Below, piece after piece: positions 1 through 4,469 of a stretch of 4,469 nucleotides of DNA. Origin of the DNA: a virus (taxonomy: Duplodnaviria; Heunggongvirae; Uroviricota; Caudoviricetes); IMG/VR virus record IMGVR_UViG_2526164596_000006; one strand, 5' to 3'. The translations under genes were made by a program, and so were the position numbers. Below the pieces are notes generated by a model. That model saw only the letters and a list, made by a program, of their open reading frames with translations, was not told the origin of the DNA and did not search any database. Within the stretch, counting starts at the first letter, position 1, and the number at the start of each line of letters is the position of its first letter.

Positions 1-1571
1 ACGGTCTTCGCTGGTATGGCATCCGCACGGTGGAGCCTCACCATGACGGCACCGTGCACTGGCATATGATGGTCTTTGCTCATCCGGAAGAAATCGACAG
101 CATCGTGGCCATCACCCGCGATATTGCCATTCAGGAAGACCGCCACGAGCTGGGCAATGATATTACTCCGCGCTTTAAGGCGGAGTATGTCGACGGCTCA
201 AAAGGCACACCAACCAGCTATATCGCGACCTACATCGGAAAAAACCTGGACAGCCGGGCCGTGGATGGCATCGACCCGAAAACAGGCAAACCACGCGTTG
301 ACCACGAAACCGGAAAATCAATGGCCGAGAGCGTGGAACGCGCCATCGGCTGGGCGCGCCTTCACCGGGTCCGCCAGTTCCAGTTCTTTGGCATTCCCTC
401 CCGTCAGGTGTGGCGTGAACTCCGCCGCCTTGCCAGCCAGATGGCACGCAGCCCGGAAGGCCCGCAACGGCTGAAGGATGACGCAATGGATGCGGTTCTT
501 GCTGCCGCTGATGCCGGGTGTTTTGCCACCTACATTGAAAAACAGGGTGGCGTACTTGTTCCGCGCAAGGACTACCTGATTCGCACCGCCTACGACCTCG
601 CAGATGAGCTGAACGATTACGGCGAACAGAGCGTACAGATTTACGGGATCTGGTCACCACTCATCGGGGAATCCTCCCGTGTGTGCACGCATCCGGATAA
701 CTGGAAGCTGGTAAGACGTAAACCGGAAGCGGAAGACAGCGCCCGCGAAAATGGTTTTGACCTTCAGGGCGGCCCTGCCGCCCCTTGGACTCGTGGCAAT
801 AACTGTCCCCGTGTACAGGAAACGAACAACAACGGGGCAGAACAGCCGGAAGAACGGCCAGCACCGTGGCCGCAGCTCCCTGATGGCGTTGAAGTGAACG
901 AATGGATGCGCTCACTGAAACGGCACGAACGCCGGGCGCTGATGCGTTCGCTTCATGATAAACAGGCAAAAAACAGCAGTGATGAAATGCAGAGCTGGAC
1001 ACAGAGCCGCAAACAGCAGCGGCCTTTGCCTGATAACCACGAATTACTCGCTAAAGAATGGCGGGAGTCTGCCGAATCTCTCGGCCTGCATATCGGTGAA
1101 CAGCAGATGCAGCACCTGTTACGGGGCGGCAGCCTGTACGTTGACGGCAGCATCATTGCACCGCAGGGATTTGAAATTGTACGCAAACCGGATACCCGAC
1201 CGGACAGCCGGATCACGCAGCTCTGGCAGCGCCTGAGCCGTAACCACGGCGTAAGCAGCACGGAGATCCGCCATAACCCGGTCGCCGGCTATCTGGCACA
1301 GCTGGGGGCATCAGACCACGAAGCCGCCGCACGCCTGGCATCCACACTTCAGCAGGACCAGAACACCATGAAAACCCCCGTTACCGTGCTTTCTGACATG
1401 CTGCGCGCCATCCGTGACGCAGAGCACGCACAGAGAATCAGTGAAACCACTGAACGCGCCCGCCGCAAAGCAGACCTGCTGCGGGGTAGCCTGACCAGTG
1501 GAAACAAAAAACAGACAGAAACGGGATTCACAAAACCCGTAAATGAGCAAAAAACGCGCCGCGATATATGA
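1..1571 (+). CDS. A: Replication initiation endonuclease, P2 gpA family (HUH rolling-circle nickase); 5' end lies outside the window, about 522 C-terminal codons present
   Basis: The frame beginning at nt 3 is open to the window edge; the ORF track's start at 30 is a GTG, so the true start is upstream. Stop is TGA at 1569-1571. The translation has HWH (nt 57-65) followed about 50 residues later by SYIATYIGK, with Tyr codons at 219-221 and 231-233 (Y-x3-Y), the catalytic arrangement of P2/186 A-type nickases. A long hydrophilic C-terminal region follows. Confidence 0.8.
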   Translation, partial: GLRWYGIRTVEPHHDGTVHWHMMVFAHPEEIDSIVAITRDIAIQEDRHELGNDITPRFKAEYVDGSKGTPTSYIATYIGKNLDSRAVDGIDPKTGKPRVDHETGKSMAESVERAIGWARLHRVRQFQFFGIPSRQVWRELRRLASQMARSPEGPQRLKDDAMDAVLAAADAGCFATYIEKQGGVLVPRKDYLIRTAYDLADELNDYGEQSVQIYGIWSPLIGESSRVCTHPDNWKLVRRKPEAEDSARENGFDLQGGPAAPWTRGNNCPRVQETNNNGAEQPEERPAPWPQLPDGVEVNEWMRSLKRHERRALMRSLHDKQAKNSSDEMQSWTQSRKQQRPLPDNHELLAKEWRESAESLGLHIGEQQMQHLLRGGSLYVDGSIIAPQGFEIVRKPDTRPDSRITQLWQRLSRNHGVSSTEIRHNPVAGYLAQLGASDHEAAARLASTLQQDQNTMKTPVTVLSDMLRAIRDAEHAQRISETTERARRKADLLRGSLTSGNKKQTETGFTKPVNEQKTRRDI

Positions 1572-1620
1572 AGCGCGCATAAAACAGGCAAAAACGGGAT
1601 TTAAAAACCCCGTAAACGAT
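1507..1620. repeat. Two ~36-bp imperfect direct repeats, each with an internal inverted repeat (ACGGG-N9/10-CCCGT), with A-tracts spaced about every 10-12 bp; candidate parC-like centromere/operator for the downstream parMR
   Basis: Copy 1 at 1507-1543 (aaaacagacagaaacgggattcacaaaacccgtaaa) and copy 2 at 1581-1616 (aaaacaggcaaaaacgggatttaaaaaccccgtaaa). Copy 1 overlaps the last codons of gene A; copy 2 is intergenic, about 30 bp upstream of the parM start. Position matches where parC sits in type II partition loci. Confidence 0.4.
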
Positions 1621-1647
1621 TAATTAATCAACATAAGGAAAATCGAC

Positions 1648-2607
1648 ATGAAAATTTGTATCGACGACGGCTCCACCAACATCAAGCTGGCATGGACTGA
1701 GAACGGCGAACGCCGCAACGCCATCAGCCCGAACAGCTTCAAATCGGAATGGTCTGCGCCGTTCGGTGGCATGCAGCCCGCAAACTACATGCTTGATGGC
1801 GTGCGCTATGGTTTTGATCCGGTCAGCGATCGATTTGTCCAGACGACCGACACGCAATACCAGTACAGCGATGTGAATGTAATTGCCATTCATCACGCGC
1901 TGGTCAAATCAGGCATCACGCCACAGGAGGTGGATGTGGTTGTCACCCTGCCACTGAGCGAGTATTTCGACACAAACGCACAGCCGGACATGGCCAACAT
2001 CAACCGCAAAAAAGCGAACGTTATGCGCCCGGTGGAGTACCAGAACGGCGAAGCATTCACTATCCGTAACGTGCGGGTTATGCCTGAATCCATTCCGGCT
2101 GGCTTTAAGGCACTGGCTGACATGAGTCCGTTTGAATCCCTGCTGATTGTGGATTTGGGCGGAACCACGCTGGATGTGGCAAAGGTTCAGGGGCAACTGG
2201 CAGGTATCAGCCAGGTGTTTTGCGATCCACACGTAGGCGTTTCTCTGATGGCCGATGCCGTACTGTCGGTGATGGCCACTAACGGTATGCGCACCAGTCA
2301 CCACATCGCCAATACCATTATCGAACATCGCCATGATGAAGCCTGGCTGCGCCAGCACATCCACAATGACGCGCATTACGACAGCCTGATGGCGGTTATT
2401 CGTGAAAAGGAAGAAACACTGAAACAACGAGTGATCCGCGCGCTGGCGGGTTTTTCGGGTTACGGGCGGGTGATGGTTGTCGGTGGCGGGGCGGAGATTG
2501 TGGCACCCGCTATCCGCGAAGCCTGCGGAGTTAATGCGACTTTCATCGCGGACGGGGTGCCACAGTTTGCTCTGGTTAATGGGCTGTACGCAATGGACAA
2601 GGAGTAA
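1648..2607 (+). CDS. parM: ParM/StbA-family actin-like plasmid segregation ATPase (319 aa)
   Basis: ATG at 1648 preceded by AAGGA at 1635-1639. The N-terminus MKICIDDGSTNIKLAW...ISPNSFK...YQYSDVNVIAIHHAL closely parallels R1 ParM as I recall it. All three actin-fold nucleotide-binding motifs are present: IDDGSTNIK (phosphate 1), IVDLGGTTLDV (phosphate 2), MVVGGGAEIV (adenosine). Length matches ParM (~320 aa). Confidence 0.9.
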   Translation: MKICIDDGSTNIKLAWTENGERRNAISPNSFKSEWSAPFGGMQPANYMLDGVRYGFDPVSDRFVQTTDTQYQYSDVNVIAIHHALVKSGITPQEVDVVVTLPLSEYFDTNAQPDMANINRKKANVMRPVEYQNGEAFTIRNVRVMPESIPAGFKALADMSPFESLLIVDLGGTTLDVAKVQGQLAGISQVFCDPHVGVSLMADAVLSVMATNGMRTSHHIANTIIEHRHDEAWLRQHIHNDAHYDSLMAVIREKEETLKQRVIRALAGFSGYGRVMVVGGGAEIVAPAIREACGVNATFIADGVPQFALVNGLYAMDKE

Positions 2608-2611
2608 ACCA

Positions 2612-2923
2612 ATGACGACACCAACCAGACGGATAAGTTTCTATCTGAAGCCCGCCGCCGTCAAGAACGAAGGCGAAGCATGCACCTGGCTGGACAGCCT
2701 TACACCAGAAGCCCGCAAAAGCGGCCAACGTGTGGCTTTTCTGGCCGGGCTGGCACTTCTGAAAATGAATCCGGCAGAGGCTTACCGACTGGCTGCATGG
2801 GCTGACGATGAGGCGTTATCAGTGACACAAACCAGGACAGAACGCCCCGCGTCACAGCCAGTACCAACCTCACAGATAACCAGTCGGATGGCCGGAAATA
2901 TCAGGGCGTTATTTCCCGAATAA
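2612..2923 (+). CDS. parR: ParR/StbB-family centromere-binding adaptor (103 aa)
   Basis: ATG at 2612 sits 4 nt after the parM stop, with AAGGAG at 2599-2604. The ORF track's longer version starting at 2477 overlaps parM and is rejected. RRISFYLKPAAVKNEGEACTWLDSLTPEARKSGQRVAFLAGLALLKMNP parallels R1 ParR (RRTIAFKLNP...LDSIPQGERSRLNRAALTAGLALY, from memory), and the C-terminal IRALFPE matches ParR's LRSLFPKE. Gene order parM then parR is canonical. Confidence 0.8.
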   Translation: MTTPTRRISFYLKPAAVKNEGEACTWLDSLTPEARKSGQRVAFLAGLALLKMNPAEAYRLAAWADDEALSVTQTRTERPASQPVPTSQITSRMAGNIRALFPE

Positions 2924-2928
2924 CACAA

Positions 2929-2952
2929 CATCAGGGCGCATCCGCCCTGATG
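2929..2952 (+). promoter_or_regulatory. Perfect 10-bp-stem hairpin (4-nt loop) between parR and the downstream gene pair; possible attenuator, processing site or operator
   Basis: catcagggcg (2929-2938), loop catc (2939-2942), cgccctgatg (2943-2952). A third copy of the arm, atcagggcg, lies at 2900-2908 inside the last codons of parR, allowing an alternative pairing. The downstream tract is only weakly T-rich (actttaat), so this is not a textbook intrinsic terminator. Confidence 0.4.
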
Positions 2953-2986
2953 ACTTTAATCCGGGAACATAAACAAGGGGGACACA

Positions 2987-3319
2987 ATGCAACACATTGA
3001 CAGAGAAAAAGCGCAGCGACTGATTGAGCGGATGGAAGCGCTGGCGAAAGAAGAAAATGTCAACATCCAAAAAATAGCTGAATGTGGCCAGATAGTTCTT
3101 CGTCGTGAAAAAGACCTCAAACAACTGATGTCTGGCGAAACCAGCAAAACATGGACTTCAGGCGAGGAGACGATTTATTGCAGCTTCTGCAATAAATCTC
3201 AGTACGAAGTCACAAAGGTGATTGCCGGACCGTCTGTTTGCATCTGCAATGAGTGCGTGGATTTGTGCAATGAAATTATCAGGAGAGAAGTGACAGACAA
3301 AAAGGGAAAAAACGCATGA
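2987..3319 (+). CDS. Small protein with a C-terminal ClpX-type C4 zinc-binding domain (110 aa); N-terminal ~60 aa of unknown function
   Basis: ATG at 2987 with a strong SD (AAGGGGG at 2975-2981). Residues [40 protein letters not shown] align almost residue-for-residue with E. coli ClpX N-domain [40 protein letters not shown] (from memory), conserving all four Zn-ligand Cys (CSFC ... CNEC). No AAA+ module follows; the protein ends 15 residues later. Confidence 0.8.
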
Positions 3320-3654
3320 ACAGAAAACAAAAACAAGAGTTGAAATACTTTTTACGTAAAGAAATTGCCAGGCTTGAAGATGCAGAATCACAATCATCAG
3401 AAATTCCGTTCGGAATGGATATCAACGACGCCCGTATGCTCCAGGCATACCGCATAGCTCAGGCTGCACTACAGGCAAAACCGTCAGATGGACTGGTTAG
3501 AGCAGTACGATTCTATGAACTGGTAAAGCGTGAGAATCCGCCAGCCGAAACCGGAGCATGGAAAGACGCTGTTGACTGGGTACTCAAAGAGGCTTGTCAG
3601 GTTGTAAACACTGGCATCAAAGGAGACCTAGCCCAGCCTGCATCAAAGCTATAG
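3316..3654 (+). CDS. Hypothetical protein (112 aa), translationally coupled to the ClpX-zinc-finger gene
   Basis: Its ATG (3316-3318) overlaps the upstream TGA (3317-3319) as ATGA; SD-like AGGGAA at 3304-3309. Predicted to be largely helical and charged ([24 protein letters not shown]...). I recognise no domain. Stop is TAG at 3652-3654, followed directly by a terminator. Confidence 0.6.
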
Positions 3655-3664
3655 AAATGAGCCA

Positions 3665-3692
3665 AAACGCCCTCTTCCAGGGCGTTTATTTC
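3665..3692 (+). terminator. Rho-independent terminator closing the parM-parR-zf-hyp cassette
   Basis: aaacgccct (3665-3673), loop cttcc, agggcgttt (3679-3687), then a T-rich tail (atttc). It starts 10 nt after the gene-4 stop. On the minus strand the hairpin is followed by TTTTGG, so it may act in both directions. Confidence 0.7.
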
Positions 3693-3694
3693 AA

Positions 3695-3721
3695 TGCACA
3701 ATAGTGCACAAATTTGCACAA
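3695..3721. repeat. Three direct TGCACAA heptamers at exact 10-bp phasing (a fourth copy at 3787-3793)
   Basis: TGCACAA at 3695-3701, 3705-3711 and 3715-3721, followed by a T7 tract. Helical phasing suggests a binding site for a multimeric DNA-binding protein, for example in packaging/cos recognition or regulation. Confidence 0.5.
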
Positions 3722-3785
3722 TTTTTTTGAACGACTTTTTGCCCTTCCGGCCCGCGTGGCGGCTGGATCCGTCAGGGATCCGTGC

Positions 3786-3818
3786 GTGCACAAAAAAACG
3801 CGTTTTTTCTGCGCGCAG
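3786..3818. repeat. Cluster of perfect palindromes in the cos-proximal intergenic region
   Basis: gtgcac (3786-3791), a 16-bp perfect palindrome aaaaaacgcgtttttt (3793-3808), and an abutting 10-bp perfect palindrome ctgcgcgcag (3809-3818). Preceded by ggatccgtcagggatcc (3765-3781) and a GC-rich stretch containing gcgtggcgg (3754-3762), which partly resembles the 5' part of the 186/P2 cohesive-end sequence as I recall it. Confidence 0.5.
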
Positions 3819-4092
3819 GTGACGGGGGAACAGCCCGCGTTTCAGGGGGTAAATAGCATTCCCTGAACGATGTCGCAGAGATACAACAGAATGGCTGTAT
3901 TTCTCACGCTGAGCGTGAAAAAGACGTGAGGGCTTTTGATTTGATGGGGTGAAAGGTAAGGCCGTCAAAATCGCACTGAGACGGCGAGAACATGCAGTCA
4001 ACGCGGTGGGATTGCGTAAGAGTCTGACTGTCGATGATGGCAATCAGCAGGAAAGCGTCGTGAAATTATCTGATTGATACAGGAGCTGGAGA

Positions 4093-4121
4093 GCCGGGGC
4101 ATAAATTTTTTATGCCCCGGC
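4093..4121 (-). terminator. GC-rich hairpin about 25 nt downstream of the portal-like gene stop; candidate terminator or packaging-region structure
   Basis: gccggggcat (4093-4102), A/T loop aaatttttt, atgccccggc (4112-4121); the stem can extend to 13 bp. The flanking sequence is not strongly U-rich on either strand, so terminator function is uncertain. Confidence 0.4.
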
Positions 4122-4145
4122 GAAGCAGCAGACAAGCGAAGCGCG

Positions 4146-4469
4146 TCAGGATGTGGGCTGGGTGTCTAACAGTGCGTAAGGGTTAAAGCGGATCACCTTT
4201 TCGCCAAGCCAGTCATTGATGTGCTTCATGGCCTCCATGACGGGCATCAGTTCGTTAATTGCGTAAACCCGCGCGGCCTTCTCCACATCACCAAACGCAC
4301 TTTTTTCGCCCGGCATCGCCCCCATCAGTTGCGGCGGAACGCGGTGCGCAGCCAGCACATCATCACGGGATGCCGCCTTAACATTCATGAACTCATCCTT
4401 TGCGGTGATCTGCTGGAACGGCAAAATTTGCACCCCCTCTTTGCCCCCGTTGGGCGCATGGATGAGCAC
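4146..4469 (-). CDS. Phage portal protein, P2 gpQ-like, C-terminal fragment (N-terminus beyond the window end)
   Basis: The minus-strand frame is open to the window edge (first in-window codon GTG); stop is TGA (plus-strand tca at 4146-4148). AHRVPPQLMG resembles the (F/G)VPPxLLG motif I recall from Phage_portal-family proteins. Convergent orientation and position after the A-distal non-coding region match P2 gene Q. Confidence 0.55.
   Translation of the reverse strand: MLIHAPNGGKEGVQILPFQQITAKDEFMNVKAASRDDVLAAHRVPPQLMGAMPGEKSAFGDVEKAARVYAINELMPVMEAMKHINDWLGEKVIRFNPYALLDTQPTS

Follow-up and report, generated by a model that had tools for sequence, protein, structure and literature searches.

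The window analysed here is a 4,469-nucleotide stretch of a tailed phage (Caudoviricetes; IMG/VR record IMGVR_UViG_2526164596_000006) that extends from within a replication gene, A, to within a portal gene, Q. Over its whole length it shares 97.4% nucleotide identity with positions 7209-11677 of phage P88 (Xuanwuvirus, Peduoviridae), from which it differs by point changes only, and a prophage of Escherichia coli O111:H21 strain 15A is closer than P88 at 99.9% identity. By nucleotide identity, the interval is the A-to-Q region of a common P88-type (Xuanwuvirus, P2-like) E. coli prophage. The proteins of the window were assigned using Pfam and PHROGs scans, and the six coding features are:

30..1571, plus strand: 3′ part of gene A (513 codons), the left flank; Pfam Phage_GPA (E 2e-29), phrog_91/6857, annotated as replication endonuclease in P88
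1648..2607, plus strand: parM, 319 aa; Pfam StbA_N (E 3e-82) and ParM_N (E 1e-68)
2612..2923, plus strand: gene for a ParR/StbB-type adaptor, 103 aa; PF10784 (E 4e-24), phrog_2515
2987..3319, plus strand: gene for a ClpX-type C4 zinc-finger protein, 110 aa; PF06689 (E 3e-16)
3316..3654, plus strand: gene for a 112-aa protein; phrog_26213/660, no Pfam match
4146..4469, minus strand: 3′ part of portal gene Q (last 107 codons), the right flank; phrog_68 (E 4e-43)

In the P88 genome, an integrase gene, the C repressor gene, cox and a long run of early genes ending in A are followed by the same four genes and Q. The order of P88 genes gp16 to gp23 is that of the window, and the zinc-finger and 112-aa genes are 100% identical in the two. 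An earlier interpretation made from the letters alone (the sequence-only reading) had placed four open reading frames (ORFs) on one strand between homologues of the P2 genes A and Q, at the site of the P2 genes tin and old, and this description holds. The gpA fragment shares 35% identity with residues 390-661 of P2 gpA (E 2e-40) and the gpQ fragment 45% identity with residues 240-339 of P2 gpQ (E 1e-34), and the equivalent interval of the P2 record contains orf91, tin and old. Full-length gpA is 940 aa in the P88 lineage and 761 aa in P2, and the last ∼220 residues of the P88-type protein (window 900-1571; residues ∼292-513 of the fragment) are without a P2 counterpart.

The phage, the hotspot and the gene arrangement are already catalogued in the literature, contrary to a suggestion of novelty in the sequence-only reading. 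Rousset 2022 analysed 18,150 gpA-gpQ loci of E. coli P2-like prophages, lists the exact arrangement found in the window, and reports that about one quarter of P2-like loci encode a putative plasmid partition system, perhaps allowing plasmid maintenance. The partition genes of P88 also appear in Pfeifer 2021, where P88 itself was flagged and scored positive for plasmid functions on their account. Neither ClpX nor the partition system figures in a 2026 follow-up on P2/P4 hotspots, the published version of which makes no mention of StbA. Added here are the division of the interval into a fixed block and a slot, a candidate centromere, figures for selection and for chromosomal state, and the interpretation of one slot protein as a possible ClpX-domain decoy.

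For comparison, ten segments of the window were mapped onto 80 IMG/VR loci encoding a window-type ParM and onto phage and genome records. A ParM scan of genome contigs yielded 3 loci only, and the 80 loci used were supplied by IMG/VR. The end of A, the repeats that precede parM, parM and parR form one contiguous block, with 94-99% identity in every locus where the flank is present (80+ loci). Variation begins only at the parR stop codon and ends at window position 3655-3696; within these limits, 72 loci show at least 31 alternative contents of 506 to 3708+ bp, and the sequence past 3695 is conserved again, up to and into Q. Sibling slots match the PADLOC models AbiLi/AbiLii, IetA/IetS, RmrA, PDC-M04A and PDC-M11A. 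Among near-identical phages, the content of 2924-3695 thus differs and includes defence systems, whereas 1572-2923 is invariant. The true hotspot therefore spans about 2924-3695 and is a genuine site for defence genes. The parC-parM-parR segment is lineage backbone rather than variable cargo, because parM and parR are fixed while the neighbouring defence systems vary. The GC content is 44-46% in the two slot genes and 55-58% in the backbone, parM and parR included.

The sequence-only reading had recognised the position as a variable one known for anti-phage cargo, in agreement with the hotspot documented in Rousset 2022 and with the defence systems of the sibling slots. However, it had taken the four genes for one swappable cassette and the whole interval for cargo, and neither view can be kept. 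The parC-parM-parR segment is fixed beside A in the 80+ loci and only the segment after parR varies, the zinc-finger gene has several downstream partners, the 112-aa gene is itself mosaic, and ∼450 bp (3695-4145) are conserved phage backbone. The description of the genes as accessory rather than core applies to the last two, which are hotspot cargo, but not to ParMRC. In hotspot surveys of the P88 lineage, the ParMRC block, being fixed, should therefore be separated from the much shorter slot within the A-to-Q interval, as the partition genes are otherwise miscounted as cargo.

The gpA-cos-gpQ hotspot of P2 (tin/old) has the same flanking genes and the same, presumably cos-proximal, position, and its contents likewise vary and include known defence systems. 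The P88 lineage differs from P2 in the fixed parC-parM-parR between A and the slot. It also differs in orientation, as the slot genes are on the strand of A, whereas P2 tin and old are read from the other strand, with a promoter of their own and mapped transcript starts. The same contrast applies to parM and parR, which are on the A strand with no promoter-like site found, and it counts against the sequence-only reading. Two hairpins were found at the limits of the slot:

2929..2952, plus strand: stable hairpin after parR, at the left slot edge (-18.4 kcal/mol, z -5.2), with a weak U tract
3667..3692, plus strand: intrinsic-terminator-like hairpin (3667-3685) with a U-rich tail (-14.8 kcal/mol, z -3.3)

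The first is restricted to loci that carry the zinc-finger gene. The second closes the same-strand run that begins with A and continues through parM, parR, the zinc-finger gene and the 112-aa gene. A consensus promoter scan of 1400-3364 detected no promoter-like site, hence none for parM or for the zinc-finger gene, and no plus-strand terminator was found between A and parM. On the simplest reading, parM, parR and the two slot genes would form the tail of the A transcription unit. No PADLOC model was matched below E 0.01 by any of the four proteins, which is the outcome that the sequence-only reading had anticipated.

The partition genes and their candidate centromere

The parM product aligns over its full length with ParM of R1 (1MWM; E 1e-92) and retains its nucleotide-binding motifs (DDGSTN, MPESIPAG and DLGGTT), the phosphate-binding and catalytic ones among them. 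The 319-aa ORF is intact in 85 of 86 loci, with protein identities of 97.5-99.7%, and the ratio of nonsynonymous to synonymous polymorphism (pN/pS) is 0.06 over 69 alleles, a sign of strong purifying selection on ParM. The parR gene starts 4 nt past the parM stop codon, and its product is intact in nearly all loci, with a conserved N-terminal part, a hypervariable linker and a conserved C-terminal NI(R/Q)xxFP tail.

Upstream of parM are two direct repeats, to neither of which a strand is assigned:

1505..1546: repeat 1 (42 nt), candidate centromere/operator with a palindrome at 1521-1540, inside the end of gene A
1578..1619: repeat 2 (42 nt), candidate centromere/operator with a palindrome at 1594-1613, 73 bp from repeat 1 and 35 bp upstream of the parM start

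The repeats are 83% alike, and each contains the palindrome ACGGGATT-N4-AATCCCGT, which occurs 2 times in the window where 0.01 occurrences are expected. In a complete 34.5-kb relative the palindrome is found exactly twice, both times upstream of parM, and across 82 loci its arms are conserved and the 4-nt spacers variable. The palindromes resemble the sites of a dimeric DNA-binding protein and are the sole candidate centromere. The sequence-only reading had described parC-like repeats as a boundary of its cassette; the repeats are real, but the first copy is inside gene A, upstream of the point at which the cassette was said to begin. The DNA that encodes the C-terminal ∼220 residues of gpA overlaps this first candidate parC repeat. 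A role of the palindromes as RNA terminators for a parM-sense transcript was considered unlikely (-6.6 kcal/mol, no plus-strand U tract downstream), and they resemble weak terminators of the minus strand.

The module has several features in common with R1/NR1 ParMRC, namely the full-length ParM match, the order repeats-parM-parR, and a ParR that belongs to Pfam Plasmid_stab_B. It differs in having two palindromic sites only, a diverged ParR, and an integrating phage as its host element. Taken together, gene order and protein families identify it as a type II ParMRC-like DNA-segregation module, predicted from sequence and fixed in the lineage. Among 50,697 phage records, ParM homologues were confined to P88-type phages and the plasmid-prophage D6 (48% identity). 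ParR was detected by tblastn in 7 of 72,556 plasmid records, and those inspected have the same prophage-type parM-parR genes, which rules out the plasmid-only occurrence that the sequence-only reading had raised as a possibility.

The parM-parR pair is present in 1303 of 5426 complete E. coli genomes (24%), at 1449 chromosomal places and 2 plasmid places. Of the two properties by which phage-plasmids are recognised, the P88-type prophages show plasmid partition and/or replication functions by way of the partition module, and, on these counts, they do not show an extrachromosomal replicon in lysogens. An in-frame deletion form, P0075 (191 aa, 143 contigs), joins the first 123 residues of ParM to residue 38 onwards of the 112-aa protein and is missing parR, the zinc-finger gene and the remainder of parM. 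One contig labelled Vagococcus sp. (NZ_JBQPOM010000071.1, L006) has an E. coli-type prophage region with a 97% identical ParM, and its label is probably due to assembly contamination or mislabelling.

The two genes of the slot

The zinc-finger gene has a GC content of 44%, compared with 55-58% in its flanks. It is always the first gene after parR, and the genes downstream of it differ, including those for a Doc-like protein and a putative antitoxin, for an XF1762-family protein, and variants of the 112-aa gene (RefSeq names). The family was found in Escherichia and Salmonella only, with the gene in 112 of 5426 genomes, and a literature search found no paper on the function of the protein.

The sole Pfam match of the 110-aa protein, PF06689, covers residues 64-99. 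In an AlphaFold2 (AF2) model (pLDDT 78), a helical hairpin (residues 6-48) and a disordered linker (residues 52-59) are followed by a C-terminal domain that resembles the zinc-binding domain (ZBD) of ClpX. The modelled domain superposes at 0.6-0.8 Å on the ClpX ZBD structures 2DS5 and 2DS8, the latter being the ZBD-XB peptide complex. The protein shares 30 of 42 residues (71%) with K-12 ClpX, and the four Cys ligands as well as the residues aligning with ClpX F16 and I46 are kept. In ClpX, the F16/I46 hydrophobic patch binds lambda O, SspB, RssB and trigger factor, and MuA and lambda O are ZBD-binding substrates (PMC7804408). With four Cys and the modelled fold, the C-terminal domain qualifies as a ClpX-type C4 zinc-binding domain.

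The C4 ligands and the F16/I46 patch are thus common to the 110-aa protein and the ClpX N-domain (1OVX, 2DS5-2DS8). However, unlike in ClpX, the ZBD is at the C-terminal end, behind the helical hairpin and linker, and the AAA+ module is absent. The corresponding DNA is only 63% identical to K-12 clpX and synonymous sites are saturated, so that the resemblance is held at the protein level. An origin of the ZBD by recent capture from clpX of the host was rejected on this nucleotide identity and on third positions that match in 12 of the 30 conserved codons.

Within a mosaic family of small ead/Ea22-like proteins, the 112-aa protein is the shortest. Members share a plan in which an Ea22-like leader at the N-terminus and variable middle modules precede a C-terminal domain of 50 aa that is almost invariant; among 591 homologues the N-terminal and middle modules are swapped, and some carry PF13935. 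The 112-aa protein lacks a middle module and itself has no match in Pfam, PF13935 included, and its assignment as Ea22-like is made because its C-terminal domain is common to the PF13935-bearing homologues. Both the leader motif and the C-terminal domain are found in ead/Ea22-like proteins of lambdoid and other coliphages. The DNA encoding the C-terminal domain (3479-3626) is 88-93% identical to genes of T7-like, lambdoid and rV5-like coliphages and of ∼90-kb contigs of plasmid-prophage size, and on these identities it is a gene module highly mobile across unrelated phages. No meaningful PDB sequence match was found for the 112-aa protein. Its AF2 model is of low confidence (pLDDT 67), and a BFVD fold search returned nothing below E 0.1.

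Roles proposed for the two layers

Two puzzles are posed by the interval. One is why a phage that integrates into the chromosome, and is found in ∼24% of sequenced E. coli, should maintain a partition machine of plasmid type under strong purifying selection; the other is what a phage gains from a free copy of the substrate-docking domain of ClpX. The reading preferred here, by a slight leaning in its favour, is that the interval comprises two unrelated layers, a fixed ParMRC-like module that would serve circular forms of the phage genome and a swappable slot that includes a putative ClpX-ZBD decoy.

In the first layer, the two palindromic repeats that closely precede parM would serve as binding sites for ParR. 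Filaments of ParM, captured by the conserved C-terminal tail of this adaptor, would push apart circular phage genomes bearing the repeats. The parM and parR genes are predicted to be expressed together with A, after infection or induction, and to act on the extrachromosomal circles then present and not on a plasmid prophage, because they are on the same strand as A with no promoter or terminator found and are chromosomal in essentially all closed genomes. A system that is alike by description is AlpAC/alpS of the Corynebacterium prophage CGP3, where an actin-like ATPase and a DNA-binding adaptor are likewise encoded by an integrated prophage. This precedent is reported to serve the transport and replication of viral DNA rather than plasmid inheritance (PMC5539076).

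In the second layer, the slot of the present phage would be a two-gene 'moron', and its 110-aa product would most likely be a decoy for ZBD-docking adaptors and substrates (SspB, RssB, lambda O- and MuA-type) that shifts ClpXP proteolysis. Most plausibly, such a free ZBD copy would compete with ClpX for adaptors and ZBD-dependent substrates. The two ideas that ParMRC acts on replicating circles in the productive cycle or a transient carrier state, and that the 110-aa protein titrates ClpX adaptors and ZBD-dependent substrates, are put forward tentatively and with more doubt than confidence. If correct, they would give ParMRC a role outside plasmid inheritance, in an integrating P2-like lineage that roughly one in four E. 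coli genomes carries, and would make the 110-aa protein a viral modulator of host ClpXP and possibly a defence or counter-defence factor.

Several observations weigh against this interpretation. R1 parC consists of ten 11-bp iterons, and two palindromes are far fewer sites. ParR has no meaningful relative in a PDB sequence search and, by tblastn, none on true plasmids. The P0075 deletion is common, so that prophages persist without the partition module. A 34.5-kb record deposited as a circular plasmid contains a complete P88-type genome with its integrase, which fits an episomal state, and co-transcription with A rests on a consensus scan that may overlook weak or non-sigma-70 promoters. For the decoy, the zinc-finger gene has a pN/pS of 0.49, based on few differences, and the N-terminal hairpin of its product found no structural match in a fold search. 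In addition, the window and the P88 allele have Cys at codon 3237-3239 (SVCIC), a fifth Cys adjoining a zinc ligand, where ClpX and most relatives have Tyr (SVYIC).

Some of these points favour a facultative plasmid prophage, in which P88-type phages would lysogenise as low-copy circular plasmids and ParMRC would perform its canonical job of securing their inheritance. Both Rousset 2022 and Pfeifer 2021 proposed this idea, and it gains from the circular record of an entire P88-type genome and from D6, the sole other phage with a ParM homologue among the records searched, being a plasmid-prophage. However, the circular record may represent excised or replicating phage DNA, the predominance of chromosomal over plasmid places is a poor fit, and integrase, cox and the C repressor are kept in the lineage. 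Replication of P2 needs gpA from the early operon, which the C repressor shuts off in the lysogen, and no separate plasmid replicon is seen in the P88 annotation. A plasmid lifestyle is possible but rather unlikely on this evidence. Far less probable, to the point of being hardly credible, is that the module is an inert remnant of an earlier exchange with a plasmid by recombination. Such a relic would account for the common derivative without the module and for a partition system that looks superfluous in the integrated state, but not for a ParM that is intact in all but one of the loci and has so low a pN/pS, nor for the conservation of both ends of ParR and of the palindrome arms. ParR and the repeats have also diverged far from the plasmid versions, which implies long residence under selection.

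The remaining alternatives assign the genes to defence. The sequence-only reading leaned towards one new anti-phage defence or exclusion system made up of all four genes and replacing tin/old. The location in a documented defence hotspot, with known systems in siblings a few hundred bases away, is compatible with this, as is the content of Table S2 of Rousset 2022, where the evaluated systems include neither ClpX nor StbA. Set against it are the lack of a PADLOC match, the fixation of parM and parR beside variable defence systems, which marks them as backbone, the differing partners of the zinc-finger gene, and the position on the early-operon strand with no own promoter detected, and a four-gene system is considered improbable. 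A defence or counter-defence function of the slot genes alone (the ClpX-ZBD protein with or without the Ea22-like protein) could take the form of blocking phages that need ClpX (Mu-type) or of preventing ClpXP-dependent triggering of toxin-antitoxin or abortive-infection systems. The slot is truly variable and contains AbiL, IetAS or RmrA in siblings, its genes have a GC content atypical of the backbone, the docking residues of the ZBD are retained, and MuA and lambda O bind the ZBD (PMC7804408). This function is nevertheless unlikely, as the zinc-finger family is narrow in host range and rare, purifying selection is weak, and the slot also houses genes without a known defence role, such as those for Ea22-like proteins.

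The non-coding block next to Q

Between the slot and Q are two further features, to neither of which a strand is assigned:

3695..4145: conserved non-coding backbone block, expected to include cos; 93-100% conservation across nearly all loci, irrespective of cargo
4093..4121: 13-bp perfect hairpin (-31.6 kcal/mol, z -7.4); neither strand has a U tract

Matches of the P2 cos 19-mer in the window do not rise above chance, the best covering 13 of 19 positions, and placement of cos by similarity to P2 was dropped on account of these chance-level matches. The sole hint to its location comes from the linear record P88_4B11, the termini of which map to 3739/3740, ∼45 bp from the slot edge. Copies of TGCACAA at 3695, 3705 and 3715, with exact 10-bp phasing, and a fourth copy at 3787 bracket this position and could form a terminase or cos-binding array. 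The first of these copies coincides with the slot's right edge.

The hairpin at 4093-4121 is 24 nt beyond the Q stop codon and matches the position of the P2 tQ terminator. An Rfam scan of the whole window, with E up to 1, gave no match. The strong terminator described in the sequence-only reading is borne out in that both hairpins are real, but the U-rich tail belongs to the one at 3667-3692, and the stronger one at 4093-4121 has no U tract. Two very small ORFs annotated in P88, gp21 and gp22, are inside the conserved block (window 3949-4077).

A second, smaller indel site adjoins the 3′ end of Q, from ∼4145 to the last 25 nt of Q (e.g. L002 5901-6539). In 9 of ∼60 loci, it contains an insert of ∼640 bp with a 174-aa ORF, 'FIG00643476', together with a different Q 3′ end.

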